From: a plasmid
Length of the DNA: 64,000 bases
Sequence record: NZ_CP154590.1
Strand: one strand, 5' to 3'
Shown here: positions 21,301 to 37,625 of the stretch, one piece after another
Position numbering within the stretch: position 1 is the first letter of the stretch
Layout of the letters: each line of letters opens with the position of its first letter
The notes under the pieces: generated by a model
Told to the model about the DNA's origin: nothing
Database searches by the model: none
The model's input: the letters and a program-made list of their open reading frames with translations, nothing else
Translations under genes and position numbers: made by a program

Positions 21301-21410
21301 TAGTGGCGATTTGACGGCATCGGCAGTGCGAGACACTGCCACTTTTTATTTGGCAATGGTATGATTGACATGAAAATCATAGCGGCAATATGTGAAAGGA
21401 AAAATTTGAT

Positions 21411-21734
21411 ATGGCAGATAAAAAATGGTTCACAACGGAAGACGTTGAACTGGCAAAAATGACGTTAGATTCTCTACCTGATTTAACCGAGAAACGTCTT
21501 ACCAAATCCGACGTATTGAATAAACTGCAAGACCAGATAATTTTGCTTTCTGGTCATAAAGGCTATTCTGTAGATGATATCCGTTCGGCTTTAGAGGGTG
21601 TGGGTATCCAGACAAGTGTTAAAGCTATTCGTGAAATATTAAGTAAGCAGAAAAAAACAACAAAAGGGGCAGGTTTTTCTCGTAACAGAACGACTAAAAA
21701 TTCTAATCAAACTCCAGTGAATCAAGAAAGTTAA
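21411..21734 (+). CDS. hypothetical Lys-rich protein next to oriT
   Basis: 107-aa ORF with an in-range RBS; no motif recognised. Confidence 0.3.
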   Translation: MADKKWFTTEDVELAKMTLDSLPDLTEKRLTKSDVLNKLQDQIILLSGHKGYSVDDIRSALEGVGIQTSVKAIREILSKQKKTTKGAGFSRNRTTKNSNQTPVNQES

Positions 21735-21896
21735 GAATTTTTACGGAGAACACTGGAACCTGATGAGAGGCATTATTTTACCACGATAGTGGTTAGATAA
21801 TTCCGAACTGTGTAATTAGCTGAAAACTGATTCAATACCTGAGTTTGTCACGCCCAGCACCATAATTAGCGGGAGTTTCCTCCCGCATTGCATCAT

Positions 21897-22796
21897 TCAT
21901 GACTTCAACTTTTGCATCATTTCTGCCATTCCCCACAATGCACGGTTCAGTTTTACATCCCCATCAATTCCGGTCACTGCACGTGTACGCTGTCTCTTTC
22001 CTTGCGCTGTTTTTCCCAGTAAACCACCCTTTGTCATATTCTCCTGAACACGCTGATACGTCGTCCAAAGATCATTAGATTTATCTTCATTTCGGCGAAC
22101 ATTGAGCAAATCGGATGGTGCCAGAGGGATGTGCTTTCCTTCTGAGTTTTCATCATAACGCCAGCCCAGAGCGGTCTGTGCAAAAATTTCCTGCTCCTCG
22201 CGTGTCAGCGCGGTGTCTTTCATTATTTCTCGTGACTCTGTTATTTCGTCAAAAATTCCCAGAACCTCGTATGCACCTTCTATAACTTGCTCGACTACAT
22301 CGCCTTTGTGCGGGACACGGATCTCCCCGAACGTCTGCCCGCAAATCATCCCGTTGGTGCAGACGAAGCGGAACATTCCCGGAATCATCTGATAACTGCT
22401 GCTACCATCGTGGCTATTCAAAAGAATTATTTCCGGAACCTCTTTACCTGCAATTTGCCCGGCGCGACGCAAACGCATCATATGTTTGGTGTGACCACGT
22501 TTTCCTTCATCACGGGTGCGTGTCTGGCAAGCAAAGAACGGCAGGAAACCTTCTTCGCGCAATTTTTCCAGAACGGTAATCGTTGGAATGTACGTGTAGC
22601 GTTCGCTACGGGAATCATGTTTGTCCTCGGAAAAAATACTCGGAACAACATGCATCAGTTCATCGTTCGTCAGTGGACGTTCGCGACGGATGACATTCAT
22701 TGATGCAAAACGAGATGCTAAACGGGCCATAGTGATTCTCCTCATGATGATTATAAAATTGCTTCTGCCGTCGCCTTTTTGATGATGATTCACCAT
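21897..22796 (-). CDS. leading-region protein, likely DUF932-type
   Basis: 299 aa; resembles the roughly 300-aa conserved plasmid/ICE leading-region family from memory; no catalytic motif seen. Confidence 0.35.
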   Translation of the reverse strand: MVNHHQKGDGRSNFIIIMRRITMARLASRFASMNVIRRERPLTNDELMHVVPSIFSEDKHDSRSERYTYIPTITVLEKLREEGFLPFFACQTRTRDEGKRGHTKHMMRLRRAGQIAGKEVPEIILLNSHDGSSSYQMIPGMFRFVCTNGMICGQTFGEIRVPHKGDVVEQVIEGAYEVLGIFDEITESREIMKDTALTREEQEIFAQTALGWRYDENSEGKHIPLAPSDLLNVRRNEDKSNDLWTTYQRVQENMTKGGLLGKTAQGKRQRTRAVTGIDGDVKLNRALWGMAEMMQKLKS

Positions 22797-23137
22797 CGCG
22801 GGTGGCCGTTCCCGTGATAAAGCGAACGGCCTGACCTACAAGGAGGAGATGCAAGGGTGCAGCAGGAAGCCGCAGCGCAAGCGACCAGAGGGAGTGCGAA
22901 CGGGTGAGTGATGTGCCCTTGCATAGACTCCGGGTCGGGCCAGAGTCTTTCACGGGTAAGGCAGCACGCGGTGAGCAAAGTACTCAAAAGGTGAAAGCTG
23001 GAATTATCCGGCGGGCGAAGCCCGTTTCCTTTCTGGGGCCGCCAGGTGGCCCCAGTCAGGGCGGCGCTGTCGGGACGGCAGCTGCAAGCCCGTGCGCCGG
23101 AGGTGGAGAATTATGCCCGGGCGTGCCGGGCTGATAC

Positions 23138-23707
23138 TTACCAGTCAAATACTGGCGCACCTTCCACATTATCCCCCACAGATGAGAAATGGATCATGCT
23201 AATATTGGCCTGCTTAATAGACCGATAAATTAACGCCCGTGTGGTTCGTGAAATGCCCAGACGTTTCAGCCGGAGAAGCGGACGTGTGGGAGCATCGAGG
23301 CGCAGAAGATACCCGACATCGGTATCCAGAATCCACGGCCATTCGTTCTCTGATTGGGTCAATTCCTGCAATAAATAATTATCTTCTAACGTGATATGAG
23401 ATATTCGACATTCCATAACCGGGCGCAGCATCATACGCGGAGCGATGATACTTTTCCCCCATCCCAATGAATCCGTAATATCGTTCCACGCCCATTCATC
23501 ATCACCAGGAATAGGGCACTCCAGCAACTGGAAAGGAACCCCGATTTTCTCCGCAATTTTCTTACCTATCGAGATCACATCCTCATTACGTTCCTGAAGA
23601 TCGCGGCCTGCAATATATTCACCATCCAGATAAATGGCCTCCTCGCCGTTCTCAAGACGGATACCTGTTACGCCGCGTGGCGCATTTTGTAGATAATATT
23701 TTGGCAT
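23138..23707 (-). CDS. hypothetical leading-region protein
   Basis: 189-aa ORF, good coding appearance, RBS GGAGAA upstream. Confidence 0.4.
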   Translation of the reverse strand: MPKYYLQNAPRGVTGIRLENGEEAIYLDGEYIAGRDLQERNEDVISIGKKIAEKIGVPFQLLECPIPGDDEWAWNDITDSLGWGKSIIAPRMMLRPVMECRISHITLEDNYLLQELTQSENEWPWILDTDVGYLLRLDAPTRPLLRLKRLGISRTTRALIYRSIKQANISMIHFSSVGDNVEGAPVFDW

Positions 23708-23761
23708 TGGTTATTCTCCGCAATGGCGATCAAAAGCCGCCCCGTTGCGGGGCGGCGGCTG

Positions 23762-23905
23762 TCAGATGTAGCCCAACTCGGCGTTCACGGTAGTCATGAA
23801 CTGCTGCCAGTATTCAAATCGCAGCGCAGGTACATGCGCGCGGCGGCCACTCTTCAGGGCGTTTACAAACGCCTTCGCCTGTGCGACTATTTGCGGGTCG
23901 AAAAT
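23762..23905 (-). CDS. small hypothetical protein (47 aa)
   Basis: Strong RBS AAGGAG 7 nt before ATG (reverse of 23897-23916); the longer 113-aa ORF-track reading is less plausible. Confidence 0.3.
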   Translation of the reverse strand: MFDPQIVAQAKAFVNALKSGRRAHVPALRFEYWQQFMTTVNAELGYI

Positions 23906-24575
23906 CATAGTTAACTCCTTTGGTTTTGATGAGGACCAGTTGCATCTGGTCTGGAAGAAGCAGAGTTCGCGCTCTGCTTTTTTATTGCCTGTGATCCGGC
24001 AATCCTTTCTGCGTCGATGACGCAAGCCTTCAGTTGTTCCCCCCCGGCTCCTTCTGCCGTCTCTTTTTTCTTCGGCTTCCGGGCCAGAACGAAACGCCCT
24101 CATTGCGCAGACGATCCGGCAGCGCCCGAAAGAGGCTGCAAGGGTTAAGGACTTATTTTTTCTGCGTCACACCGGAAAAAATCAGGCCTTAAGCAGCTCT
24201 GCTGCGACCCTTTCAGACGCTTACGGGAGATGTCAGTCTGCATCAGCAATGAGAGGCTTTCGTGCGTGCGGAGGGGAAAAAGGACGGCAGAAGAAGCCGG
24301 TGAAGCCGGCTTTCCTTAGCGGACGCCAGCGGCGGCCAGTGAAAGCGGCGCGGCCGGAACGGTCGCAGCAAGCGCGGGGGTTGCCGTTCGACATCGGACA
24401 CTAGCGAATAGCCCGAAACCGCTTGCGGGTTCGGCGGAGCCTGGCCGGTGCGTCAGCAGCTGCCCGGCGGAGTGTGGCCTGACGACCCGGCGCGCTGGCG
24501 CGACGGGGAGCCGAAGGGGGCGCACCTTTCGCATTTTCCTTTCTCTTTTCGCTGTCAATTTCAACATCAAAAAAA

Positions 24576-24646
24576 GTGCAATTTCTGCACCTTTTAACCT
24601 TCAAAAAAACCATAATTTCATTATAAAATAAGTGCAATTTCTGCAC
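24576..24646 (+). promoter_or_regulatory. twin palindromic operators GTGCA-N5-TGCAC
   Basis: Identical 15-bp palindromes at 24576-24590 and 24632-24646, immediately upstream of the HTH gene start (24664). Confidence 0.5.
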
Positions 24647-24663
24647 TTTTTTAAGGATAAATA

Positions 24664-24921
24664 ATGACAGGTTACGAGCTTCGACTCTGGAGAAAAGGCC
24701 TCGGCTGGAGCCGTGACAAGGCGGCTGAACAACTGGATATCAGCCTGCGAACCTATAAAGACTACGAAAACGCGCCCCGCCTGAAACGTAGCATTGCGCT
24801 GGCAACAGTGACGCTATCACTACAGGACCAGCTGCCCCGATTCAGACAGAACCGGACCAGCGGCGACAAAATGCGTGAAATGCTCAATACGATGATCGAT
24901 GATGCGATCCATCCGGATTAA
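24664..24921 (+). CDS. XRE-type HTH DNA-binding protein
   Basis: 85 aa; helix-turn-helix region SRDKAAEQLDISLRTYKDYE; RBS AAGGA; the only plus-strand gene in the leading region. Confidence 0.5.
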   Translation: MTGYELRLWRKGLGWSRDKAAEQLDISLRTYKDYENAPRLKRSIALATVTLSLQDQLPRFRQNRTSGDKMREMLNTMIDDAIHPD

Positions 24922-25247
24922 CGGCCCTTCCCTGCGGGCCTCCCCTGCAACGTGTCCTGCACATATTTTTGCGCCATATTCCAGACTCGCGCTTCATCTT
25001 TGCTCAGTTCCTCTGAATCAATGGCTTCACAGGTATAGTAAGCATCCCATGGCGGCGGATGACTGACCGCTTTGGGCATATTCAGCAGTTCAACCGCCGC
25101 GCGAACTGCCGGAAGCACATCACCCGAATCGATCCCTTCATCAAAAATTATCTCTGTGCCCATCGCCACGTTATCCTCCAGCCACGCCAGCAGGATTTCC
25201 AGTTTGTGGGGTTTGCTCATACGTCCTCTTTCGGTGTGGCCCGGCAA
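24918..25247 (-). CDS. hypothetical acidic protein
   Basis: 109-aa ORF; the real start may be the internal MSKPHKL; overlaps the HTH gene stop. Confidence 0.35.
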   Translation of the reverse strand: MPGHTERGRMSKPHKLEILLAWLEDNVAMGTEIIFDEGIDSGDVLPAVRAAVELLNMPKAVSHPPPWDAYYTCEAIDSEELSKDEARVWNMAQKYVQDTLQGRPAGKGR

Positions 25248-25264
25248 TCGCCGGGCCTGATTTT

Positions 25265-25756
25265 TCAGTCAATGGCCCGGTAAATCAGATCGCGTTCCGG
25301 GTGTTTGATGATGCTGATATAGTCCTTCAGCGCGTCCTGACGATCGACAAGCCCCTGGCAGACTTTCGCCATGCGCTCCCCCATTTCATAGACCTGCCAG
25401 TTCAGACGATTGAGGGACATCAGTGTCGCAATGATCCCGGCGGCCTCCGCTGAAACCTCAGCATCGAAGTAATTTCCCGGCATGGTCACGTGATACACCC
25501 CTTCCGGCGGTACCAGATACCCGGTCGGTCGGGTAATACAGTCCTCAGTCCATCCGTCAATTCGACCGCTGATACCACGCGGAACGGCAAAGTAACGCCA
25601 GAAACCTCCGTCATACTGGCTATGTACCTGTAACCAGGAGGCGACCAGCTGGTCGCCCTGCGGCGTGAAGAATAATTCAGGAATAAAGGCCAGACGCTGG
25701 CGCGGGTCAGTGATTTCAATGCTGGCAGTCGGGGCAATCATTGTGGAAGTCATCAT
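25265..25756 (-). CDS. antirestriction protein, ArdB/KlcA family
   Basis: About 163 aa from the MMTSTM start (RBS AAGGAAAG); family-like segments RLAFIPELF and YDGGFWRYF. Confidence 0.6.
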   Translation of the reverse strand: MMTSTMIAPTASIEITDPRQRLAFIPELFFTPQGDQLVASWLQVHSQYDGGFWRYFAVPRGISGRIDGWTEDCITRPTGYLVPPEGVYHVTMPGNYFDAEVSAEAAGIIATLMSLNRLNWQVYEMGERMAKVCQGLVDRQDALKDYISIIKHPERDLIYRAID

Positions 25757-25835
25757 TATTCGGCTTTCCTTAGTGGCCGCCAGTGGCGGCCAGTTTAAGT
25801 GGCGCTGCCGGAACGGCAGCTGCAAACGCTATATG

Positions 25836-26654
25836 TCAGGCGGCAATATCGAGGCCGTACATAAAGTCCTTCATTGCTTTCATGCGTCTCTGGAACTCCA
25901 GCTTGTTTTTAAAGTCGTTCCAGTAATAAACCGGGGTATACCGCGCACGATGCAGGTTCATTGTCAGCGTGTTGCCTGTGATAACTTCCGCCGGGATACC
26001 CAGTAACGAAAGCTGAACAAACGCCATATCGGCGGCGATCGGGTCAATATCGATACAGCTTCCGAACATGTGATTCGAATGGTCATATCCGGCATCTAAC
26101 AGGCATTCGGCATAGGCGATAATCATCCCCGCCGCGCCGCTCGCAGGGTCACTGACGGTGACAAAACCCTCGCGGCGGATCGACTCTTTCACGCCGGGCA
26201 TCATCATTCGTGCCATCATCGACTGAACGGAATACGGCGTGAAGTATTGCCCCATGCCATTAGATCCCAGCTCCAGCTCCATGAAAATCGCGCCGAGAAA
26301 ATCATGAAATTTGGCATCGAGCGCGCACACCATCAGGATGAAAAGATCATGCATTTTCTGAATATCTGCGGCCTCGTAGCGCTCGCAGACTTTGCGGCTA
26401 CGCTCGATATTCTCCGGTGTAAGAATCCGCGCCAGATCCAGCTCACTGGCAGAAAGCGTGATGAAATCGCAGAACACATCCCAGCGGCGCATATAACGCG
26501 CGGTATCGTTAAACAGGCGGATAAACTGCTTACGTGCTGCATCCACGTGCATCAATCCGATAATCGGCTTCTTTTTGGAAACCGGAACAATTGGAATAAC
26601 GTTGTCAGACTCACGCGCCTGGTTGAAAAATTCTGCAAAACTCAGTTGTGACAT
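25836..26654 (-). CDS. truncated HsdM-like N6-adenine methyltransferase-family protein lacking catalytic motif IV
   Basis: 272 aa; motif X (GQYFTP), SAM-binding motif I (SDPASGAAGM) and an HsdM-like FGSCIDIDP..MAFVQLSLLGI block, but the protein ends before any NPPF/DPPY motif. Confidence 0.5.
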   Translation of the reverse strand: MSQLSFAEFFNQARESDNVIPIVPVSKKKPIIGLMHVDAARKQFIRLFNDTARYMRRWDVFCDFITLSASELDLARILTPENIERSRKVCERYEAADIQKMHDLFILMVCALDAKFHDFLGAIFMELELGSNGMGQYFTPYSVQSMMARMMMPGVKESIRREGFVTVSDPASGAAGMIIAYAECLLDAGYDHSNHMFGSCIDIDPIAADMAFVQLSLLGIPAEVITGNTLTMNLHRARYTPVYYWNDFKNKLEFQRRMKAMKDFMYGLDIAA

Positions 26655-26696
26655 AGTTCCCCCTGCTTGCCGCCCCTTCAGGGGCGGCTCCGTGTA

Positions 26697-27056
26697 TCAG
26701 TGTGTTTTCTGGCTTTCAGGAATGAAGGTCGCTTTGACCTTCGCCACAATGACGGCGTGATTCAGGTGGCTGTAATCACGCAGACGGAAATAACGCTTGC
26801 CGCAGCGCACGAAAATATCAGTCACGTTCCCGCAATACATTTCCTGCATCATGAACGTTTCAGTGTCCTGCGCGGTGTCGCTACGCCAGTTCATTGGCGG
26901 CATCATCCCTGCCGCGTCATGGAACTTGTACACGTCGATTTCGACGGGTGCAGTGACAGCCGCTTTTTCGCGGGTCAGCCAGTAGGCGCGCTCGGCCTCG
27001 GCGGTCGCGTTCATGTCCAGCGTGTGGGTCGGTTCGGTCTGATATACGTGCATAAG
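26697..27056 (-). CDS. hypothetical leading-region protein (119 aa)
   Basis: Start MHVYQTEP with RBS AAAGGAG; the 323-aa ORF-track extension runs through a GC-rich repeat and is rejected. Confidence 0.4.
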   Translation of the reverse strand, partial: LMHVYQTEPTHTLDMNATAEAERAYWLTREKAAVTAPVEIDVYKFHDAAGMMPPMNWRSDTAQDTETFMMQEMYCGNVTDIFVRCGKRYFRLRDYSHLNHAVIVAKVKATFIPESQKTH

Positions 27057-27960
27057 GATCTCCTTTCTTTTAATCACATCACCCGTTGAGTTACGGGAGC
27101 CGCGGTTTTGACGTTTTGCGGGAACCTGCTGAAGTTTCCCGGGTTGTTTCACTTCACCCGTTTGAGAACCTTCGCCGCAGGTGCAGCACGCCACCGGCCG
27201 ACGCCGGAATCCGGGGCGGAAGCGCAAAGTTTTTACCTGGAAAAAGTTTTCGCTGGAGAGCGGCAGCGGCCCTGGATGACAAGGAGGACTGTGGCGTGAT
27301 TCAGCACCCAGGAGGAGGATCTCAAAGGGCGAAACGCACAACGGAGAAGACGAGCCGGGACCCGCCGCAACGGCGATACGCGGCAGCGTAGCGATGTTGC
27401 CCTGCAGAATCCCGTCGCCGGCGACGGGATGGTGAGAGCGGCGTGGCCGGAACGGCCGCAGCAAGCGTGGGGTTGACCTTCTCCATCGGACACTAGCGAA
27501 TAGCCCGAAACCCGCAGGGGTTCGGCGGAGCCTGGCGGGTGCGTTAAGCAGTTGCCCTGGCGGAGTGTGGCCTGACGACCTGGCGCGCTGGCGCGACGGG
27601 GAGCCGAAGGTGGTCGGGTTCTTCGCCTTTCTGGTTTGAAACAGCAAAAATCCGGGAGAAAATGGCACAGCTATCAGGGAAAGTGGTACAGAAGTGAGTA
27701 AAGAGAAACAGACGGCAGGAAGAAAGCGGAAGACGACTAAATGACCATAATGAGGACATAAACGGAGGGGAGGATGGGAGGCGCGCAGCGCCTCTCCCCC
27801 GCCCTTCCAGCTGGGCGCCCTGCAGCAGGTTGTTCATGCCAGGCCAGACAGGGAAAAGGGCCTCCCTGCGAACAGGGAAGCCCTTCTAAAAGCGCTTGCG
27901 GCAATGGTCCGACAACATCCGATACCCTGAATGGCGGGGGTTTCCCCCCGCCGGGGTTAG

Positions 27961-28119
27961 CTACTTAGCGGATTCGTAAGCCAGTATTGCAGCGACCTCC
28001 CGTTCTCCGTCCTTCAGCCTGATTTCGCAAAGCGATTTTCGGGTCAGGTATGTGAATGCCAGCAGTGTTAAACACACTATAAGCACACACCAGATAACGG
28101 GACTTCGCGGCAGTTTCAT
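27961..28119 (-). CDS. hok: Hok/Gef-family type I toxin
   Basis: Reverse-strand translation [52 protein letters not shown] (52 aa), almost identical in pattern to Hok/FlmA; RBS AAGGAG; absent from the ORF track because it is under 60 aa. Confidence 0.8.
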
Positions 28120-28179
28120 GGCCTTCTTCTCCTTGCCTTACGGCATCTAAGAGGCTATCCTGATGGTGTCGATTCATGC

Positions 28180-28270
28180 AGGGGCCTCGGTTAATGAAAA
28201 TTAACTGGGGCTTTTGTCTTTCTGCCTCACGACACAGGTACAAACCACCGGAACATCCTGAGGCAAAAAG
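28180..28270 (+). ncRNA. sok: probable Sok-type antisense RNA / mok overlap region of the hok locus
   Basis: Inferred from hok locus architecture only (antisense to the hok mRNA leader); boundaries not determinable by eye. Confidence 0.3.
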
Positions 28271-28350
28271 CCTCAAGCGCCACCGCCATTATACCGTTCA
28301 TCCCTCTTTCTGCCCAGGAATAGGCAGCTAACTGTCTTAATTTATCCTGC

Positions 28351-28587
28351 TTATCCGTCTTCCCGGGGATCGCCCTCCCCTCTGGCCCACTCAGTAATCT
28401 GCTCATCCAGCACGGCAAGTTGCGGGTATACCGCCTCAGCCAACAGATAAAAATCTGTCTCCAGTCCGCCATGCCAGTCGGCCCATTCGGCAGACATATC
28501 ATTCAGTTTGTCGACGATGGTCTGCAGCTTCTTACGCTGACTGCGTGCGAGTTTCAGTTCCTCGCGGAACGGGTTTCGTTTTCTCAC
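28351..28587 (-). CDS. hypothetical protein (78 aa), coupled to psiA
   Basis: Start overlaps psiA stop (ATGA). Confidence 0.35.
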   Translation of the reverse strand: MRKRNPFREELKLARSQRKKLQTIVDKLNDMSAEWADWHGGLETDFYLLAEAVYPQLAVLDEQITEWARGEGDPREDG

Positions 28588-29318
28588 GGCCAGACCTCCC
28601 GAAGAGTGATCTTGTTCGGTACCATCCAGCGTTCAAGCTCGCGTTCTTCAGGCGAACTGGCTCCCGCAACGTCGTGAACATCCAGCACAACCTCCAGCGC
28701 CGACAGGTTATACCCGCGAACCAGAGATGCCAGTGACGGACAACGTTCTGTCCACGCCCACAGCATTTTTTCCAGATCGTAGTCCCGGATATCCTGTTGT
28801 GACCAGTGGGCATACCAGGTGCGGATAGTCTCCGGTGTGTGAAATGCCAGGTCAATTTCGGCCTGCCCGGTCAGATTGTCATACTTCTCTTCCCGCTCTC
28901 TTTCTCGGCGTGCCTCCTGACGGCTGTATAGATCATCTTCACGCTGGTAACGGCTTGCCTGACGCTCTCCCACACTGAACGCCTGCTCCGGAAACAGCGA
29001 TGTCACCATCGAGGTATCAAGCGGTGAATAACAATGCCGACCCCGCGAGCGAATCAGAGTATCAAATGCTTCCTCATACTGAGCGAGCGGGACTTTGTCG
29101 TCCTTGTACCAGTACACGCCGCGTACCTGGTTAATGGCGCGACCGCTAATTTTGCTGCTCCCACACAGGAACCGGAAAAAGGCCCGGGCATAAGGGTGCG
29201 GCGGATTACCGAACCGCCTGTCCTTCTGGGTTGTTTCCTCAACGTGCATAATGGCACGGAGTGCAGCTTCACGTTCTGGCAGTTGCGTCACAAGAGAGAG
29301 ATGGCGTGGAATGCTCAT
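28584..29318 (-). CDS. psiA: PsiA plasmid SOS-inhibition protein A
   Basis: MSIPRHL start overlapping psiB stop (ATGA); segments PYARAFFRFL and LAFHTPETIRTWYAHWSQQ resemble F PsiA. Confidence 0.75.
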   Translation of the reverse strand: MSIPRHLSLVTQLPEREAALRAIMHVEETTQKDRRFGNPPHPYARAFFRFLCGSSKISGRAINQVRGVYWYKDDKVPLAQYEEAFDTLIRSRGRHCYSPLDTSMVTSLFPEQAFSVGERQASRYQREDDLYSRQEARREREREEKYDNLTGQAEIDLAFHTPETIRTWYAHWSQQDIRDYDLEKMLWAWTERCPSLASLVRGYNLSALEVVLDVHDVAGASSPEERELERWMVPNKITLREVWP

Positions 29319-29740: not shown

Positions 29741-29783
29741 AGGGTATCTCCTTATTGCCGCCCCATCGGGGCGGCTCTCCATA

Positions 29784-31772
29784 TCAGGCGGCTAATGCCG
29801 AGTGGTCAGTTTCAGTCTGGTTTTCTTCAATCGCTTTCGGCTGCGGAGCGCATAACCACGCAGGAACCCAGCAACTGTCTTTCAGACGATCTTCGGCAAG
29901 CTCGGCAGCATCGCCCTTCTTCATCTTCGCCGCATCGGACGCTGCCCCTTCCATTCCAGCCTCTTTCAGGGATTCGACAATCTGGTCATGCTTAACGCCT
30001 TTGAAATATCCGTCTTTGGTTGGATGCCACCAGTCGCGAAAGTTGAAATCGATCGCAGTCTCCAGCGCGTCAAGTTTACTTCGGGAGGTATGACCGTTAT
30101 CGCGAGTCTGAACACCGTCAACGGAACAGGCCGTACAAAACGCCATAAGAGACATGAGCACGCCACCATCCAGCGAGAAGAACGAGGTTAAATCCTGTCG
30201 CCAGCCCTCTGGCAACAGCGCCTCAAGACGCTCACCTTCGGTCCGGATTGCGGTATATGCTTTACCCTCCTTGCCCGACGGTGCATTCATGGTCTGTGAG
30301 TAATGACCTACAGTCACGCGAACACCAAATGGATTATCCTGCTCTCCACGCCCCGTAAAGACCTCAGCACACATACGCCATGCCAGCAGCGCCACGGCTT
30401 TGGTTGGCTGGTTCATCAACGCTGCCTGAACAGCAAGCGTCCTTTCAGACGACATTTTCAGCAGTTGCGGCGCGGTAACCCCTTCGGTGATATCTTTTTT
30501 TATCGAAGTCACCGCAGGTACAGGATCCTCCCCACTTTCCGTTTCTCCGTTCTCTTTTGTCGGAAGGTCTGCAATACGGCAGACACCGCGCTGAATGACC
30601 AGTTCGCCATACTGGTAGCTGACCACAACACCCGCAGAGGCTTTCATCCCATCCGTCCAGGCACGTTGTCCTGCTTCTTCCTGCATACGACAGATTTCGG
30701 CATCAAGCTCGTCAGCTTCATCACAGGCACTGTCAAACGTACTAAATTTCTCTTTCAGTTCATCCAGACGCGCCTGTTCTTCATCGGTATAGACGGTTTC
30801 TGGTTTTTCCAGCAGCAGGTAGTCTTGCCCGTCCTGACCATAACGACTTACCGTTTCTGGACGACCCATACTCCACGACCAGCCCTCGCTCAGTTCGTGT
30901 TGCAGTGCAATCGTGTCCAGTTTTTCCTGTACAAGGCGCTGAACCAGTACGCTGTCAGCCGTTCCAGCCCCCTCTTCCTTGGAAAACAAATCTTCACGAA
31001 CCACACCGCCAGCGGTTTCATATGCTTCACGACCCACAAAGAGAAAGGCTGAACTGGTAACAGAAATTTCGGTTTCTGTGATCGCACGTTTTAGTAAATG
31101 AGCCTGAACAGATCCCCACTGCGCGTAGACGCTGTCAAACACCTGAACCTGACGTTCCTGACTGGATTCAAGGCACAGAGCCTGACACTGCTCAACAGTG
31201 ATTTCATCCTGTGCCAGCTTATCCAGCAGTGCTGGGGCAAGGTTTGCCAGTTTCAACATGCGCTGAACATGGCGGGAACCATAGCCCAGACCATCACCAA
31301 TCTGCGCGGCGGTTTTGCCCTGCGCCGCCAGCTTACCAAAGGCCATAATTTGCTCGGCAGGGTGCATCGCCTCCAGTTCATTGTTCTCAGCGTAAGACGC
31401 TTCAACAGCCAACTCGTCACTGACGCACTTAACCGGAACCTGATAATCAGCACCAATACGTCCCGTCTCGCACAACAGATTCAGTGCGGTGAGACGTCTA
31501 CCACCTGCAGCAACTCCGGATTTGCCCTCCGGCAGCACGTGAACCACGAGGTTATGCAGAAGCCCGAGGTTTTCAATCGAGTTAGCCAGACGTTTAACAC
31601 TGTCAGCGGTGTAAGGGATAGTACGCACGTTCAGCGGAGATTTAATAAGATCGGACAGCGGAACGTATGTGATAACAGCGGAATCAAGCGCGCTTTTCAG
31701 TTCTGCGCTGATAACTTTATTCTTCGGGTTGGCCTTTTTGGCTGATTTTGCTTTAACATTTGCTACTGACAT
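29784..31772 (-). CDS. ParB-like nuclease-domain protein (leading-region YubM-like)
   Basis: 662 aa from MSVANVKAK (RBS GGAGG); N-terminal ParB/Srx-like box; size and position typical of F/IncI leading regions. Confidence 0.7.
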   Translation of the reverse strand: MSVANVKAKSAKKANPKNKVISAELKSALDSAVITYVPLSDLIKSPLNVRTIPYTADSVKRLANSIENLGLLHNLVVHVLPEGKSGVAAGGRRLTALNLLCETGRIGADYQVPVKCVSDELAVEASYAENNELEAMHPAEQIMAFGKLAAQGKTAAQIGDGLGYGSRHVQRMLKLANLAPALLDKLAQDEITVEQCQALCLESSQERQVQVFDSVYAQWGSVQAHLLKRAITETEISVTSSAFLFVGREAYETAGGVVREDLFSKEEGAGTADSVLVQRLVQEKLDTIALQHELSEGWSWSMGRPETVSRYGQDGQDYLLLEKPETVYTDEEQARLDELKEKFSTFDSACDEADELDAEICRMQEEAGQRAWTDGMKASAGVVVSYQYGELVIQRGVCRIADLPTKENGETESGEDPVPAVTSIKKDITEGVTAPQLLKMSSERTLAVQAALMNQPTKAVALLAWRMCAEVFTGRGEQDNPFGVRVTVGHYSQTMNAPSGKEGKAYTAIRTEGERLEALLPEGWRQDLTSFFSLDGGVLMSLMAFCTACSVDGVQTRDNGHTSRSKLDALETAIDFNFRDWWHPTKDGYFKGVKHDQIVESLKEAGMEGAASDAAKMKKGDAAELAEDRLKDSCWVPAWLCAPQPKAIEENQTETDHSALAA

Positions 31773-31839
31773 CGTTATTTCCTCCATTTTAATGATTGTC
31801 GCGTTCTGCGGAGGTGCATCTCCGCAGAACACCTTTCGT

Positions 31840-32175
31840 TTACTGCTGTACTGCCCTGCCGTGACTTTTCAGGTAGCCGTTCAGTACCTGTCCGGCATCC
31901 GGCTGGAAATTCCAGACCCGTTCAATCAACTGCTCATGTTCGTCACGCATAACTAACTGAAAATGCGATGACTGATCGTTTTCTAACGTCACATTGGAGT
32001 AATACGCAGACACGTTTTTCGCGTCTTCGCGTGTAAAAGCGCCCAACGGAAGCAGTGGCGCAGGAGCATTGACGACTTCGCCATTCAGCAGCGCCGCCAG
32101 CGCATGATCCTCAGCCGTAGGCTGCCGTAATGACTCAGGCTGATTCAGAAAATCCTTCAACGATTTGCACATCAC
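31840..32175 (-). CDS. hypothetical protein (111 aa)
   Basis: ORF with plausible RBS; no motif. Confidence 0.35.
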   Translation of the reverse strand: MMCKSLKDFLNQPESLRQPTAEDHALAALLNGEVVNAPAPLLPLGAFTREDAKNVSAYYSNVTLENDQSSHFQLVMRDEHEQLIERVWNFQPDAGQVLNGYLKSHGRAVQQ

Positions 32176-32757
32176 AAAACCCCTCTGGTCTGGTTTTCAG
32201 AGGCAAAGCCTCTCCTGCCGTCCTCTTTCTGGTGTTTTCACACACTGCGGAGGACCTTTCCGCGAGAGCGTAACGGGCACGGCCCGGTGAAGCTGTCCAG
32301 GATTAGCGGGAAATTTATTCCGGCTCGTCCGGAAAAAATTTGCTGATAAAGCCCCGGCGGTCCTGGCCAGCAAGACGGGTTGTGGCGGTATCAGCGACCG
32401 GAAAGGCACTCAGCAGGGAATGAACGCAGAGGAAGTGGCGGGAGAGAGCCGGCAACGTCAACAACGTTGCCCCTTACACCCCGGAACGGGGTGCATCGAG
32501 CGCAGGAACGGCGCGACAGGGCGGCGCGACCGGAACGGTCGCTGCAAGCCAGCCTTTGACGTTGCGACAGCCTGGGATGGAAACCCGCTGCCCGAAGGTT
32601 TACCGGAGGGCCGGGCAGAGACAGCGCAGCTGGCTCGGTGCGAAGCATGACAGCCCCGGTTCCCGAAGGGAAGTCGCCCGGGTAAACCAGCCCGTGGAAA
32701 AAAAGTATCTGAAAGCCCCGGTTTTTATCGTTCTGGTTATGGTTCTGGCCACGCGGT

Positions 32758-32810
32758 CCACGCCCACGCCCACGCCCACGCCCACGCCCACGCCCACGCC
32801 CACGCCCACG
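32758..32810. repeat. hexanucleotide tandem repeat (CACGCC)x9
   Basis: Eight perfect CACGCC units plus a partial unit; lies in an 800-bp non-coding, GC-rich stretch. Confidence 0.9.
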
Positions 32811-32982
32811 CAGGTCAGCATGTTTCAGAAACGACAGCAGGAAAAGCAGATTTCAGAACTGATTCATTACCGGCTTCACCGGCGGAGGGAATGCGCCGCA
32901 GGCGCTTTCCCCTGCCGTCATCCCGCAGGGATGACAGGGTTTTCCCGCGCGCGAACAGGCGGCTCATTGGCCGCCTCCGGGA

Positions 32983-33171
32983 CTAATATTTAACTTTTTG
33001 CTGGATAAACTGGCCGCCGATAAAAAGTTGCTCGCGACGAGTCAACAAATCACAAATATCGTCAAGGAGCATTGGCGTCGTTATAGGTCTGAGGCCTAAT
33101 TCCCTGCGGCGTTCGTTTACCAGAGTTTTGTAGTGTTTCAGAATTTTGCGTGTTTCAGGTGTCATTTTCAT
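32983..33171 (-). CDS. small hypothetical protein (62 aa) downstream of ardA
   Basis: ORF 44 bp after the ardA stop, probably co-transcribed. Confidence 0.3.
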   Translation of the reverse strand: MKMTPETRKILKHYKTLVNERRRELGLRPITTPMLLDDICDLLTRREQLFIGGQFIQQKVKY

Positions 33172-33213
33172 AGGGAACCTTTTTCCGGCAGGGTTTCCCC
33201 TGCCTTATCTGAA

Positions 33214-33738
33214 TTAGCGACGAAAAACATAGCCATCAATGAAGTTGAAAGTGTCGATAAACAAATCACGGGCAAACGCGTCATAGTCAAAGTAGCCGCG
33301 CAGGCTCTCAGGGATAGCCGCCAGCAGGCTGTGTTCGTTCACGTAGTCCACAGCAAAATCTTCTTCGCTCACGGCCTCGCCATAGTAGGCGTCTTCGAAC
33401 GCGTCAAAGTCGCATTCGCCGCTGTATTCGGCCCACGCGATAAATGCCGCGTCCTTACCTACATCCTTCGCCTGTTTGTAGGCATCGATGAAATCCCAGT
33501 CCACAGAGCTTTCAGAGGCAAACTGAGAAGGAATGCCTTCCCAGTCCTGAAACATCAGTTCCGGGTCATGCTCATTCGCGTGGAGCGCGTGGCAGGCTTC
33601 CAGAAAGTCTTCTTTCTCGTCGAAATCGGTCAAATCAAACCATTTTCCGGCCAGGCTGCCACAGTTGTATTTGTGATAAGTGCCAACGTATACCGCCGGG
33701 GTGGTGGTGCTGATAGTGTTCATGGGTGTTCCCTCCAT
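33214..33738 (-). CDS. ardA: ArdA antirestriction protein (DNA mimic, anti type I R-M)
   Basis: Highly acidic 166-174 aa; PAVYVGTYHKYNCGSLAGKWFDLTDFD and HDPELMFQDWEGIPS match ColIb-P9 ArdA closely. Confidence 0.85.
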   Translation of the reverse strand: MEGTPMNTISTTTPAVYVGTYHKYNCGSLAGKWFDLTDFDEKEDFLEACHALHANEHDPELMFQDWEGIPSQFASESSVDWDFIDAYKQAKDVGKDAAFIAWAEYSGECDFDAFEDAYYGEAVSEEDFAVDYVNEHSLLAAIPESLRGYFDYDAFARDLFIDTFNFIDGYVFRR

Positions 33739-33765
33739 AGTCCAGGTTATCTGAGTACCGGCTTA

Positions 33766-34000
33766 CGCCGTGCCGACACGACAGCCCGACGAAAAGCGGA
33801 GGATGCAAGGTCGGAAGCGGAGGCCGCAGCGCAGATAAAGCAGAGGCGGTCTGGACGGTTTTTCTGCGAATTTTTGAGCAGAAAAACAACGGGAAGAACG
33901 CCGATAATCATCAAAAATAACTGCGACCGGGTGACGGTGGAGGTGGCGCCAGCCACGTGCCTTGCATACGCAGCGGTCGGGCTAAAGTGAAGGCACGGCG
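33766..34000 (-). repeat. GC-rich palindromic leading-region repeat A1 (putative ssDNA promoter, Frpo/ssi-like)
   Basis: Ends CGCCGTGCCGACACGACAGCCCGAC ... GTCGGGCTAAAGTGAAGGCACGGCG are mutually complementary (large hairpin); about 235 bp; directly upstream of ardA. Confidence 0.5.
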
Positions 34001-34130
34001 TTAGCCGCAGACCGCACGAAATCTCATCCCGCGCGCGCCCGTAACAGCGTGGAGGTCGCGCTGGTATAGCGGAGCAGCGCGACATCCGATTCCTGTTCAG
34101 AACTGCGGGGCAATCTGCCCCGCCCGTCGG

Positions 34131-34910
34131 TCACGCAGCAATCCGGATTCCGGAGAATGACCGCATCATCGCGTCAATTTCGACGCGGGCCTCGCTGACC
34201 GCATCACGTAACCAGCGGCGCTCAAACCATACGCGTGATGGGCTGTCCGGGTGACGCAGCGCGAACGGTACGTCCGTGACACCAACAACGCGACCGCGAC
34301 ATTCGAGACGGATCTGGAGGCGACGAAACGTTTCCTGCCCGTCGAGGACGGCTTTCAGGCGCGCGTCGAGAGTGTCGTTATCCCACTCGGTATCATCGCT
34401 TCCGGCTTCCACTTCAATCACGGAGAGCGTGAAGTTGCGCGTCCGGCGGGTAAACACCAGAGGATCAGCAGCAGGACGCAGGGCTTCTGTCAGGCGGTAT
34501 CCGGCAGCGGCGACACAGCTACAGACATGGTTGATTTCGTCTCGCAGGGCTTTCAGGAGGCACAGGATTTGTTTTACCGACATCCCGGCAGGACAGTTAT
34601 CGTATTCCAGCGAAATCGTGCCAGCGTGGGCTTTGCGGTGGCCCAGCGAGTTGCGGTAAAGACGAACAATCAGATCGCTCCCGCCAACTAATGGCAGCAG
34701 TTCATTCAGTGCGCTATCCGGCATCAGGCCACGCAGCGCAATTTCAGGCAACAGGCGCAGCAGATCGGACGCCCCCAGTTGGCCATAGAAAGCGACGCCT
34801 TCCCCACGCGAATAATTCAGGCTGGTATCGATATCCATCGTGGCTGGCCAGCCACGGGCAACCAGCGTGTTACGGGTGTGACGGTGCATAAAGCGATAAG
34901 CGGTGGTCAT
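34131..34910 (-). CDS. hypothetical leading-region protein (259 aa)
   Basis: ORF directly downstream of repeat A2; no motif recognised. Confidence 0.4.
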   Translation of the reverse strand: MTTAYRFMHRHTRNTLVARGWPATMDIDTSLNYSRGEGVAFYGQLGASDLLRLLPEIALRGLMPDSALNELLPLVGGSDLIVRLYRNSLGHRKAHAGTISLEYDNCPAGMSVKQILCLLKALRDEINHVCSCVAAAGYRLTEALRPAADPLVFTRRTRNFTLSVIEVEAGSDDTEWDNDTLDARLKAVLDGQETFRRLQIRLECRGRVVGVTDVPFALRHPDSPSRVWFERRWLRDAVSEARVEIDAMMRSFSGIRIAA

Positions 34911-34943
34911 AGTTTTCTCCTTGTCTCGACGCGGCGACTGCTT

Positions 34944-35178
34944 CGCCGTGCCGATACGACAGCCCGACGATCCGCGGGAAATGCAAGGGCGGAACCGGAG
35001 GCCGCAGCGCAGATAAAAGCAGAAACGGTCTGGACGGTTATCGAGCGAAACCTGAGCGAGAGAACGACGGGAAGAACGTTGAAAAACATAAAAAATTTAC
35101 TGCGACCGGGCGATGGTGGAGATGGCCCGGCCATGTCCCTTGCATTAACCGCAGTCGGGCTATAGTGGAGGCACGGCG
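34944..35178 (-). repeat. GC-rich palindromic leading-region repeat A2 (putative ssDNA promoter)
   Basis: Same terminal sequences and internal GATGCAAGG..GCCGCAGCGCAGATAAA core as A1. Confidence 0.5.
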
Positions 35179-35273
35179 TTGACACCCGCCGCGACACCGG
35201 CGCGGCATAAAAAGCGGAGTCCACGACATCCTTATGGCTGATTTGGCGGGCTGACAATGCAGCCCGGCCACGG

Positions 35274-35612
35274 TTAGCGGGTGAATTCGTCCCAGTGTTC
35301 GTTGAACTGATTCTGAACCCGCGGGCTTGTCAGATCACCGGTAACAACCCAGGCATCCAGGAATTTAAGCTCCTGCAGGATAGAACTTTCAACATCATCA
35401 AGCAGTGTGATGCTGTTAAACCAGACCGACTTTCCGGAACGATAAGCCCATCGGCAGCCATCACTCTCTTCCAGGCATTCCTGCCACCAGGTTCTCCCCA
35501 TATAAACAACCCCGGCTTCCGCCAGCGCCAGACTCTCCGCCTGGATCAGGAAATATGCCGGAAACTCAAGATCAGAAACTTCGATATCGACGCCAATCAA
35601 CCAGGTATTCAT
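35274..35612 (-). CDS. hypothetical protein (112 aa), downstream gene of a coupled pair
   Basis: Start overlaps the stop of the 153-aa gene (ATGA). Confidence 0.4.
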   Translation of the reverse strand: MNTWLIGVDIEVSDLEFPAYFLIQAESLALAEAGVVYMGRTWWQECLEESDGCRWAYRSGKSVWFNSITLLDDVESSILQELKFLDAWVVTGDLTSPRVQNQFNEHWDEFTR

Positions 35613-36073
35613 TATTTCTTTGCCTCTTCAATCGCCCACTGCAGGTGATCCCAGTTGAAACCGATATTGGCATCATGGCATTCATCAGCGAGTGCCATCG
35701 CAGCCTCAATCGTCTCGTTGTCCAGCGTGTTATCGAGCGAAAGGAAATCGTCGGCCAGCCAGAACGTCCCTGTACAAAGTGCATCCAGAGGATGTTGCTG
35801 CAATCTGGCAATCATCCCCGATACAGTCATTTCACGACGCCACAGACCAGGTGTCGGGAAAACTGCGTTGGCCACATCAAACCACTCCCAGTCTCCTGGC
35901 GGTACCGGCCATTTCACCATTTCGGTCTGAACGCCTGGTAGCCGGGACAGACGCTCAAGGATCTCCCCCAGGGAAAACTTATGGCCACTTACATCGTCAC
36001 TGGCCAGACAGTGGCCATTGAGAAACACCGCATGCTGGCCATCATCCAGCGTAATACACGTCAGCTTAAACAT
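35612..36073 (-). CDS. hypothetical protein (153 aa), first gene after repeat A3
   Basis: RBS GGAGGGAAAT before ATG; no motif. Confidence 0.4.
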   Translation of the reverse strand: MFKLTCITLDDGQHAVFLNGHCLASDDVSGHKFSLGEILERLSRLPGVQTEMVKWPVPPGDWEWFDVANAVFPTPGLWRREMTVSGMIARLQQHPLDALCTGTFWLADDFLSLDNTLDNETIEAAMALADECHDANIGFNWDHLQWAIEEAKK

Positions 36074-36100
36074 ATTTCCCTCCTTAACCCGGCACCCATC

Positions 36101-36329
36101 TGCGCCGTGCCGACACGACAGCCCGACGATCAGTGGTTAATGCAAGGGCGCCAGCAAGGCCGGTAGCCGGTAATAGCAGAGGCGTTCCGAACGGGTTTTC
36201 CGTGAAAATTGAGCGGAAAACCGACGGAAGGAACGACGATAAGACGTTAAATCACAGGCGGCCGGGTGCAGCTGGCGGCGCAGCTTCCCTTGCATTCACC
36301 ACAGTCGGGCTATAGTGAAGGCACGGCGC
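36101..36329 (-). repeat. GC-rich palindromic leading-region repeat A3 (putative ssDNA promoter)
   Basis: Third copy of the CGCCGTGCCGACACGACAGCCCGAC ... GTCGGGCTATAGTGAAGGCACGGCG element. Confidence 0.5.
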
Positions 36330-36427
36330 ACCCATGCCTGAAGATGGGATAACCAGACGCTGCCGGTTCAATACCGGCAGTGGATGGCTGGGGAGAGATG
36401 ATGAGCCCCGGTTTCCCGGGGACGTCT

Positions 36428-37171
36428 TCAGGAAAAGCTGGAGGTTAATTCCCGATCGTGGATGATACGCTGGCGTACCTCGTCAGCCAGAGCATGAAGC
36501 GCTTTCAGCGGTAGCCAATGGCGTACTGGCGCTCCCGGACGAATAATGCAAATGCCGGCGCTGCGGTCACCTTCGCGGACCATATCAAAATCACGGTAAA
36601 TCGCGAGGCCAACGGCAACAACTGCGGCCCCGTGGTGAAAAATTTCTGTCAGCCATAGTTGCTGTTGTTCAGCATCCGGGCGCATCAGCGGCGGCATATC
36701 ATTCCACGCTTCACCAAAAACCCAGAAGTGGCGTGTCTGGCGCTCAAAAATATTAATCCCTTCATACTGGGCTCCGGTCATGTCGTTAATAATGCCGGCA
36801 TCAATGAAGATCTGACGGCACAGGACCATCAAATCGGCTTCAATCGCTTCAGTCAGGCCAATACAGATCGGGTTCGCCTCCTCAAAATCAACCCGAACAC
36901 AAGGATCACCTTTCAGGATTTCGCCGCTGACGCTTGCACACAGGTTGAGATCACTGCACATCTGCTGCAGGCCATGGACCGCACGGGTATCAAGATGGCC
37001 ACGTGAAGCAATCGCCGGCAGCATCGCCATAATAGATTCGGTAGTGACATGGCCCGAAATAGTGAAGCAATAACAGTTTGCATCAGGCTGGACAACGACT
37101 GACGACGGCCAGTTGTTTTCTGACAGGATCTGACGGCTGCGGGTTGGTGCAAGAGTCATATAAAGATTCAT
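36428..37171 (-). CDS. hypothetical leading-region protein (247 aa)
   Basis: Start MNLYMTLAP with RBS AAGGAG; another GC-rich element (shared core GCCGCAGCGCAAGCGACCAGAGGGAGTGCGAACGGGTG, also found at 22870) lies upstream. Confidence 0.4.
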   Translation of the reverse strand: MNLYMTLAPTRSRQILSENNWPSSVVVQPDANCYCFTISGHVTTESIMAMLPAIASRGHLDTRAVHGLQQMCSDLNLCASVSGEILKGDPCVRVDFEEANPICIGLTEAIEADLMVLCRQIFIDAGIINDMTGAQYEGINIFERQTRHFWVFGEAWNDMPPLMRPDAEQQQLWLTEIFHHGAAVVAVGLAIYRDFDMVREGDRSAGICIIRPGAPVRHWLPLKALHALADEVRQRIIHDRELTSSFS

Positions 37172-37590
37172 AGGGTACTCCTTCGTTTGATTTACCGGGC
37201 TTCTTCTGCCGTAGCTTTTACGTACGGGAGGATATCTCCCGCCATAAGCGACAGGCGGCAACGTGCCATCAGGCAAAAATCAAGTTCCGGAGGCAAAGCC
37301 GCAGCGCAAGCGACCAGAGGGAGTGCGAACGGGTGCAGCAGCAGGCGACTTTATTTTTGCCGGCACGGTGCAACTGTTTAAGCGATGGCTGGAGATAATC
37401 TGACTGCAATAGAGCAGCAAAGTGACTTCATTGGATATACCCACATCGTTATCCCCCGATTCTGTGGATAAGTAACCCAGCTCTCAACGAGTGCAAGGTA
37501 CCACATCACCGGTGGAGTTTTTCCAGGAACTACAGAGGGTTAAAGGCAGCAAAAAATCAATACTTGAAAGTGTCTTCAATAAGGCAATAA

Positions 37591-37610
37591 TACTGTATAT
37601 GCAAACAGTG
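37591..37610 (+). promoter_or_regulatory. LexA (SOS) box
   Basis: TACTGTATATGCAAACAGTG fits CTGT-N8-ACAG, 16 bp upstream of the umuD-like start. Confidence 0.7.
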
Positions 37611-37625
37611 TTATTTGAGGTGGTT

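Follow-up and report, generated by a model that had tools for sequence, protein, structure and literature searches.

Candidate single-stranded DNA promoter hairpins in the leading region of an IncI-like Citrobacter/Enterobacter plasmid

Leading region, oriT and gene orientation

We analysed a stretch of 64,000 nucleotides from the plasmid record NZ_CP154590.1 (hereafter the window), which includes the leading region of a Citrobacter/Enterobacter plasmid of the IncI-like type (NikB/MOBP). Our subject is the set of large hairpins in the long intergenic stretches of this region, candidate promoters that would work on single-stranded DNA (ssDNA), together with a second repeated structure, the B element; coordinates are collected in Table 1. 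Positions 21400-37500 are 99.9-100% identical to several Enterobacter/Citrobacter plasmids, such as CP035635.1 and p26019-4, and the gene annotation was taken from p26019-4 (at least 99.9% identical). To the left of the region, this annotation places a MOBP relaxase of 899 amino acids and an accessory protein of 111 amino acids, a pair that we take to match NikB and NikA of IncI1 plasmids in size and order. As read from the sequence, a nick motif of the R64 type, ACATCCTG/T (the slash marking the nick), is located between nikA and the first gene. The nick consensus of MOBP relaxases is YATCCTG/Y, and the motif predicts a nick between 21257 and 21258. The oriT region (21172-21279) is 87% identical to the nikA-proximal oriT region of the IncI1 plasmid pESBL, and the segment 21100-21449 has a strong ssDNA fold (z -6.9 in a sliding scan). 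Considering that the nick motif lies on the + strand, and given the polarity of MOBP relaxases, the + strand is the transferred strand, with its 5' end first toward higher coordinates, and the incoming strand is thus the template for - strand genes.

Between the NikA-like gene and umuDC, which points away from oriT and bounds the island, there are 21 genes, and 19 of them have the transferred strand as template (DUF932, DUF5983, hyp48, DUF957-like, KlcA/ArdB, N6-methylase, hyp118, hok, hyp78, psiA, psiB, ParB-like, DUF905, hyp62, ArdA, orf259, orf112, orf153, and orf247). The first-pass annotation of this DNA, made from the sequence alone, had all genes oriented toward oriT, which is right for these 19 and wrong for orf107 (21411-21734) and a helix-turn-helix (HTH) gene (24664-24921), both on the + strand. 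The long non-coding stretches that it described were recovered as eight stretches of 354-907 bp upstream of - strand operons (annotation and open reading frames, ORFs), and in each of the eight there is a large hairpin whose best fold is that of the + strand.

Table 1. Features of the leading region and its borders, in window coordinates.
Feature	Position	Strand	Context or basis
oriT core	21212-21258	+	inverted repeat GCATTTGTAATA...TATTACAAATGC, then nick motif at 21250-21258
19 leading-region genes	21897-37171	-	p26019-4 annotation and family scans
Divergent class-2/3-like hairpin	22765-23000	+	upstream of DUF932 gene; candidate ssDNA promoter
B fragment, P0 only	23023-23095	+	small hairpin with GGA triloop, then TGCAAGC
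Long imperfect hairpin	24044-24300	+	upstream of 48-amino-acid ORF and DUF5983 gene; candidate ssDNA promoter
B1, full copy	24307-24520	+	multi-helix transferred-strand structure
B fragment, P0 only	25761-25833	+	in 79-nt spacer between methylase and klcA/ardB genes
Class 1 (Frpo/ssi, ssp1) homologue	27067-27410	+	upstream of hyp118 - N6-methylase - KlcA/ArdB - DUF957 operon
B2, full copy	27411-27613	+	directly distal to class 1 hairpin 27067-27410
Class 1 (Frpo/ssi) homologue	32205-32520	+	upstream of DUF905 - ParB-like - psiB - psiA operon
B, P0 part	32515-32600	+	distal to class 1 hairpin 32205-32520
A1	33759-34007	+	class 2 hairpin upstream of ardA (33214-33723) and 62-amino-acid ORF
A1 hexamers	-35 TTGCAT 33963-33968; -10 TAAAGT 33984-33989	+	sequence, predicted
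A2	34944-35179	+	class 2 hairpin upstream of orf259; TTGCAT-N15-TATAGT
A3	36101-36330	+	class 2 hairpin upstream of orf153 and orf112; TTGCAT-N15-TATAGT
Divergent class-3-like hairpin, weak	37225-37410	+	upstream of orf247; low-certainty candidate
Island boundary	37591-39325	+	LexA box 37591-37609, umuD 37626-38054, umuC 38054-39325

Class 2 hairpins of the A-family

Six ssDNA promoters have been identified in the IncI1 plasmid pESBL by RNA sequencing (RNA-seq) and 5' rapid amplification of cDNA ends (5'-RACE) on transconjugants (PMC12672017, December 2025) and assigned to class 1 (Frpo/ssi), class 2 (upstream of ardA and klcA), and class 3 (M.EcoGIX operon), classes that were later renamed ssp1-3 (bioRxiv 10.64898/2026.01.09.698686, January 2026); the class 2 promoter of F is ssp2, upstream of yfgB/ardB (PMC12672017; bioRxiv 10.64898/2026.01.09.698686). 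In the window, a repeat finder reproduced the repeat families at the positions reported by the first-pass annotation and placed the A-family at 33766, 34944, and 36103 as three copies with complementary ends (arms 33759-33790/33976-34007 in A1 and 36101-36127/36304-36330 in A3). Each copy lies directly upstream of a gene start, as had been noticed before, the hairpin bases being 28-41 nt from the ATG codons of ardA (33723), orf259 (34910), and orf153 (36073). Over their whole length, A1-A3 can be aligned with the pESBL regions upstream of ardA and klcA, and an A-family profile (nhmmer) recovers pESBL (E 1e-50) and F upstream of yfgB (E 1e-49), with E values of 1e-51 to 5e-59 for the three window copies; the family also matches the candidate sequences Frpo'4, Frpo*1, and Frpo*3 of PMC11541004. 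Queries with F Frpo/ssiD and ColIb Frpo1-3 against 33700-36400 gave no match (blastn, word size 7, E 1e-3). The homology to pESBL and F yfgB and the lack of an Frpo/ssi match thus identify the A-family as class 2 / ssp2, so that the earlier suggestion of F Frpo / ColIb ssi-like promoters holds for the kind of promoter and fails for the class.

The likeness to pESBL class 2 and F ssp2 comprises full-length homology, a hairpin of ~230 nt with the base GCCGTGCC...GGCACGGC, a TTGCAT-N15-TAnnnT 3' arm mismatched over 3 nt (-11 to -9), and the same placement upstream of anti-restriction genes on the transferred strand. The window differs in having three tandem copies, ~1.16-1.18 kb apart, whereas F has one and pESBL two, and in the 5'-arm variant GACACGACA instead of TCCATAAAA and -10 hexamers TAAAGT/TATAGT instead of TAAGAT; moreover, two of its three copies precede uncharacterised genes (orf259 and orf153/orf112), for which promoter activity is predicted from sequence.

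Folding of the elements as + strand ssDNA, which the first-pass annotation had proposed as a check, placed A1 (-69.1 kcal/mol, z -7.2) and A3 (-72.2 kcal/mol, z -8.3) far below their shuffles, with a weaker result for A2. A pattern scan with one genome per species yielded 18 loci, and an alignment of 20 sequences, including the three window copies, supports a consensus fold of 53 stem pairs, 17 of which show compensatory double changes. Stem cells are paired in 96% of cases, compared with 31-40% when partner columns are slid by 1-3, and the covariation score of 0.263 (slid controls ~0.05) was reached by none of 500 shuffles. The hexamers that had been looked for in the stem are present on the 3' arm, which reads TTGCAT, 15 nt, and TAAAGT, TATAGT, or TAAGAT, followed by GAAGGCACGGC at the stem base. 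Positions -11 to -9 oppose C/A, A, and G/A on the 5' arm, a mismatch common to all 20 sequences, and in 15 of them the T that opens the -35 hexamer is in a G.T pair.

The possibility that these repeats are fragments or miniatures of transposable elements (a miniature inverted-repeat transposable element, an insertion sequence end, or a repetitive extragenic palindrome, the last two being what the first-pass annotation named as refuting outcomes) with no role in expression was also considered. In its favour, there are terminal inverted repeats and several copies per plasmid, and the exact 40-nt repeat shared by 22867-22906 and 37296-37335 points to recombination between copies. However, the window copies all face the same way with respect to the transferred strand and the gene downstream, and so do those of F, pESBL, and every locus examined in Klebsiella, Enterobacter, Citrobacter, and other enterobacteria. 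In the 17 loci copies that have left sequence, this flank leads into the reverse complement of a Shine-Dalgarno sequence, the three window copies end at the short distance from a start codon given above, and the stems covary while hexamers and -10 mismatches are kept. No transposase is associated with the repeats, no target-site duplications were found, and neither the A-family nor the B-family has a match among phage records. A mobile-element origin of this kind is therefore extremely unlikely. Matches of the A-family to plasmids fall mainly in conjugative or mobilizable ones (3426/4103), and among 40 matches listed, 39 have no annotation at the element and one overlaps a hypothetical coding sequence. 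Near-identical class 2 copies of the IncI1/Escherichia type also occur in a Streptomyces morookaense contig (L006) and a contig of a Ferruginibacter metagenome-assembled genome (L010); these copies in unrelated phyla are most likely contamination by enterobacterial plasmid DNA.

Another possibility is that the hairpins act as RNA or in duplex DNA (as 5' leaders, attenuators, or terminators of promoters in double-stranded DNA, dsDNA) and not as ssDNA promoters. Each of the 11 non-coding elements has its better fold on the + strand, with a margin of 1.6-13.4 kcal/mol over the - strand, whereas 55 coding windows of the same region lean toward the - strand by a mean of 2.7 kcal/mol and the + strand is the better one in only 22% of them. 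Within the consensus helices there is an excess of G.T over A.C cells, 32 against 4 for the A-family and 31 against 5 for the B-family. Considering that the mRNA has the sequence of the - strand, the better fold of the + strand and the G.T excess argue against a role as RNA leader. A consensus scan found no sigma70-like site on the - strand directly upstream of seven of the eight operon starts behind long intergenic stretches, the exception being a pair at 37487/37614 upstream of orf247; hok, which lies behind a shorter spacer, has its own - strand site at 28316, and the total count of sigma70-like sites in the scan is at chance level. It is true that long GC-rich palindromes between tandem operons could terminate read-through and that some terminator-like sites are predicted in the intergenic regions, but for the pESBL homologues, 5' ends at the base of the hairpin are seen in fresh transconjugants only (PMC12672017), and we regard action as RNA or duplex DNA as quite improbable. 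A sliding 250-nt fold scan missed A1 and A2 because its fixed frames cut the hairpins, and it is useful only as background.

A different emphasis is possible for class 2, namely that these hairpins are selected mainly as a block to complementary-strand synthesis and that promoter activity is secondary. F ssp2 stalls complementary-strand synthesis and conversion to dsDNA until UvrD removes the hairpin, a roadblock that has been mapped, and replacing it by ssp3, which has equal promoter strength, did not fully restore F transfer into some hosts (bioRxiv 10.64898/2026.01.09.698686); the window has three class 2 hairpins one after another at the island's distal end. On the other hand, conserved hexamers and a -11 to -9 mismatch would be superfluous for a simple barrier, and each copy keeps a fixed short distance from a Shine-Dalgarno sequence and start codon. 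A primary roadblock role seems to us a minority prospect, one to be taken seriously all the same.

Other hairpins, the B element and the island genes

Class 1 (ssp1) comprises Frpo of F, reportedly described by Masai and Arai in 1997, and ssi1-3 of ColIb-P9, reportedly described by Bates et al. in 1999. Two regions overlooked by the first-pass annotation belong here: the elements at 27067 and 32205 show 77-87% identity over 110-170 nt to F ssiD, Frpo1, Frpo2, and Frpo' (BLAST), the former also matching Frpo' sequences of Samuel et al. (fold z -4.05) and the latter matching ColIb Frpo2 and Serratia marcescens Frpo'1 (fold z -5.9). No -35/-10 hexamers were recognised by eye in either, so the class assignment rests on homology. 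Frpo1 and Frpo2 of F are needed for early expression in vivo (PMC9849209), and in F and IncI1 plasmids a class 1 copy precedes the psiB-psiA operon, as the 32205 element does here. The proposed mechanism, a transferred-strand hairpin serving as a sigma70 promoter, would be the same in class 1 and in the A-family, whereas the sequences have no detectable similarity. As a separate observation, no ssb gene follows the class 1 promoter in 32173-32982, where DUF905 comes directly next; ssb is the first gene of the corresponding operon in the F, pESBL, and Klebsiella plasmids examined.

Two further hairpins, at 22765 and 37225, diverge from the known classes. The first-pass annotation had listed "related cores" near 22870 and 37296; these are indeed the exact 40-nt repeat mentioned above, which forms the apices of two divergent class-3-like hairpins. 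The 22765 hairpin (fold of 22731-23137, z -5.2; + strand more stable by 13.4 kcal/mol) carries TTGCAT-N16-CAGAGT on its 3' arm within an internal loop, and its apical block AAGCCGCAGCGC...GA.CGGGTG is common to pESBL class 3 and F ssp3 in an alignment. In the 37225 hairpin (fold of 37172-37631, z -2.45; sliding window 37200-37449, z -5.5), TTGCCG-N16-TAAGCG are possible hexamers. The A-family profile matches the 3' arm of class 3 (E 7e-8), with E ~1e-7 for pESBL class 3 and F ssp3; these elements (3280-3440 of the pESBL locus L003 and 4664-4824 of the F locus L022) combine a class 2-like base and TTGCAT-N15-TAACGT with a shorter apex, whose block AAGCCGCAGCGC...CGGGTG recurs in the window at 22790-22975 and 37225-37410. 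Because base, promoter-like arm, and apical block are held in common, class 3 looks, from sequence comparison, like a short relative of class 2, the two being long and short versions of one family; the class 3 hairpin has been described as unlike all others (PMC12672017). At ~165 nt, pESBL class 3 and F ssp3 are shorter than the A-family, and their two window relatives have different basal stems and a weaker -10. The hairpin at 24044, which the first-pass annotation also missed, is the strongest of the region (-77.5 kcal/mol, z -8.7); its termini, CTTCTGCCGTC...GACGGCAGAAG, resemble class 1, and it is confined to 23 plasmid records, mostly from Citrobacter, and hence lineage-specific.

The B element (~200 nt) was recovered by the repeat finder as long copies at 24307-24520 and 27422-27613 and three further short copies. 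B2 is 88.6% identical to B1 and 77% identical to both pESBL copies. The element occurs in at least 5000 plasmid records (IncF, IncI, and related) at 14,850 places, ~3 per record, and the annotation at the 30 matches listed is either no feature or an overlapping "hypothetical protein". Full copies in pESBL and in Klebsiella, E. coli, and Entomohabitans plasmids each lie directly distal to a class 1 hairpin, and F and some Enterobacter plasmids keep only helix P0; a P0 or full B is distal to 13 of the 14 class 1 copies examined (a full B at 10), in the same orientation in every copy examined. A 14-sequence alignment gives a consensus fold of five helices: P0, whose triloop is G-A-A; P1, a long-range helix around P2 and P3; and P4. 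Helix cells are paired in 98% of cases (21-44% when slid), and ten pairs in P0, P1, and P4 have compensatory changes, with three P1 pairs split 7:7, 7:7, and 9:5. From this sequence evidence, B appears to be a selected transferred-strand structure coupled to class 1 promoters.

The first-pass annotation had treated the B-family as palindromes of the promoter type with complementary termini. Mutually complementary termini are true of the A-family arms; B has only an invariant 4-bp closing helix, and it is instead a multi-helix companion distal to class 1 hairpins. Could B be a further class of ssDNA promoter? It is GC-rich, structured, and strand-specific (the G.T excess given above), and it occupies the same intergenic regions. 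However, it consists of five short helices rather than a long hairpin, its folding energy is ordinary for its composition (z ~0 in the sliding scan), and the alignment contains no conserved promoter hexamers and no TTG...TAnnnT on the 3' arm. A complete class 1 hairpin stands between B and the gene in 10/10 full copies with a class 1 neighbour, B abuts no gene start apart from one 70-nt fragment, and F retains P0 alone, yet its Frpo1 and Frpo2 are active (PMC9849209). A promoter function of B is therefore very doubtful, and as a long-hairpin ssDNA promoter it was rejected. We also rejected B as coding sequence (reading frames differ between B1 and B2, and the helix variation is compensatory) and as class 3 (the pESBL class 3 region has no BLAST match to B). 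No Rfam match was obtained, no description of it was found in the literature, and a full-text search for B sequence strings gave nothing relevant.

We tentatively propose that B is an undescribed cis-acting structure of the transferred strand, ~200 nt with five helices, that acts with class 1 promoters, an idea that we consider less likely than not. Our best guess for its function, of low confidence, is a hairpin cluster resistant to SSB (the protein that binds single-stranded DNA), serving as a barrier or insulator before the promoter hairpin or as a priming site; such a barrier could possibly protect the promoter hairpin against read-through polymerase or against the complementary strand as it advances.

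As regards genes, Pfam confirms ArdA, Antirestrict KlcA/ArdB (PF03230), PsiA, PsiB, ParB, N6_Mtase, DUF932, DUF905, and DUF5983, and Rfam finds sok at 28117-28282, adjoining the annotated hok, so the anti-defence and establishment genes named earlier (ardA, ardB/klcA-like, psiB/psiA, and hok) are present. In the Rfam scan (gathering score; E<=1), sok is the only significant match in the leading region, AS-pc01 and ctRNA being far below threshold. The previous estimate of about ten unknown ORFs was accurate, ten having no Pfam match; searches of the unknown ORFs against Pfam, NCBIfam, PHROGs, and PADLOC returned nothing functional and sequence searches of PDB were empty, and it is a guess that they are anti-defence genes. 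Orf259 (34131-34910) is 30% identical (E 4e-20) to a pESBL protein of 259 amino acids encoded before the klcA promoter, which occupies the position of YffB in F; orf259 is thus YffB-like, and both orf259 and orf247 (36428-37171) match phrog_8919. Orf153 (35612-36073) and the DUF5983 protein (23138-23707) have in common an N-terminal domain of ~70 residues (26% identity, E 3e-9). The isoelectric points of orf112 (4.2) and orf153 (4.5) are close to that of ArdA (4.1), and this acidity is no more than a hint of DNA mimicry. Only 20 clusters make up the orf153 family; its AlphaFold2 model (19 homologues) is mediocre (pLDDT 72.5, pTM 0.53), and Foldseek found no PDB match at E<=0.001.

Several smaller observations concern the same DNA. 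The coordinates of ardA (33214-33723) depart from the reference annotation through a 6-nt difference in a CCACGC repeat: p26019-4 is 6 nt longer over the matched region, and the difference was placed at the repeat because gene coordinates shift by 6 only to the right of it; an intergenic, perfect tandem repeat of nine CCACGC units occupies 32758-32811. An AT-rich palindrome, AAAAGTGCAATTTCTGCAC, is present twice in 24569-24652, immediately upstream of the HTH gene on the + strand, and the two copies are likely the operator of that gene; a similar palindrome is found beside HTH regulator genes in pESBL (18447-18485 of L003). A short GC hairpin, CGGGAGGAAACTCCCG on the - strand, has three copies (21860-21885, 27925-27950, and 32297-32322), of which the two that directly follow the DUF932 and hok genes look like terminators and the third is inside a class 1 element. 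The LexA box TACTGTATATGCAAACAGT is 17 nt upstream of umuD and overlaps predicted sigma70 hexamers at 37564-37591. Elsewhere in the window, an Rfam AAC_AAD_leader / attI match (57539-57613, 71 bits) suggests a class 1 integron.

A model of early expression and its relation to known islands

Homology to mapped elements, stem covariation, the placement of hexamers and mismatches on the correct arm, and the bias toward the transferred strand, all computed here, lead us to conclude that this is very probably an anti-defence leading region in which the + strand intergenic hairpins act as ssDNA promoters for the adjacent operons. From these features we infer transcription from ssDNA, its start site, its shut-off in dsDNA, and a roadblock, as follows. 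After nicking at 21257/21258, the + strand would enter the recipient 5' end first, and each long intergenic stretch would fold into a large imperfect hairpin whose 3' arm provides the hexamers (-35 and -10) of the non-template strand. The pseudo-duplex could then be bound by host sigma70 RNA polymerase, which would start near the stem base; because the 3' arm is the non-template strand, the polymerase would leave the base leftward, running along the 5' arm into the operon before complementary strand synthesis and producing a transcript leader of ~45-50 nt that contains the Shine-Dalgarno sequence. Conversion to dsDNA would remove the hairpin, and expression should stop. In the duplex, the gene strand would read CTGCAT/TTGCAT...TGTCGT, and the missing A at -11 fits the reported silence of such promoters in dsDNA. 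By analogy to F ssp2, complementary-strand synthesis may also be held up at class 2 hairpins, which would extend the expressing ssDNA state. A1-A3 would drive ardA, the YffB-like orf259, and orf153-orf112, respectively, and the class 1 hairpins would drive the methylase-KlcA operon (27067-27410) and the DUF905-ParB-psiB-psiA operon (32205-32520), with the hairpins at 22765, 24044, and 37225 as divergent candidates.

Several points speak against the promoter interpretation. The fold of A2 is modest (-51.1 kcal/mol, z -2.9 against shuffles). The A-family -35 agrees with the consensus at three of six positions, and a 15-nt spacer is short for sigma70. The invariance of the hexamers in the 20-sequence set carries no weight because TTGCAT and TA...T were set by the search pattern; the conservation of the hexamers can be judged only from eight copies recovered without the pattern, through profile or BLAST searches, which keep TTG....TAnnnT and have TTGCAT, TTGTAT, or TTGCAA at -35, with matching 5'-arm changes, and TAAAGT, TAGAGT, TAAGAT, or TACGAT at -10, and two shorter partial profile matches have TTGCCT and TTGCGA at -35 and TAACGT and TAGCGT at -10. 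The 22765 and 37225 hairpins have poor -10 hexamers (CAGAGT and TAAGCG), and the 24044 hairpin has no homologue in F or pESBL, no characterised relative, and no recognisable hexamers. Some related plasmids are typed as "mobilizable", not conjugative, so a helper may be needed for transfer.

Leading-region anti-defence islands with Frpo-like promoters, bounded by umuDC, have been described by Samuel et al. 2024 (PMC11541004). The window resembles them in its adjacency to oriT, in its oppositely oriented umuDC boundary, in that its anti-restriction, SOS-inhibition, methylase, and toxin-antitoxin genes have the transferred strand as template, and in having Frpo-like elements upstream of ORFs, with no essential difference. 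The observation of the first-pass annotation is thus largely correct, the sequence-based tests it called for (multiple alignment of the copies and comparison with insertion sequence or repetitive palindrome fragments among them) having come out as reported above, and the phenomenon is already published and was experimentally shown in 2023-2026; the B element is possibly the one item here that might be new.

No new principle emerges from this region, and its value is that of a clean natural case in which eight candidate ssDNA promoters are found within 16 kb, spanning at least two known classes plus class-3-like and unclassified hairpins, with three of the ssp2 type in a row. If ssp2 hairpins stall duplex conversion as in F, it would be testable here whether serial roadblocks tune the window of early expression. 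The B element is more widespread than any single promoter class and merits attention in research on early conjugation. Finally, the covariation of the stems, an invariant mismatch at -11 to -9, and the kinship of class 3 with class 2 may aid the annotation of these elements, which are carried by more than 4000 records.

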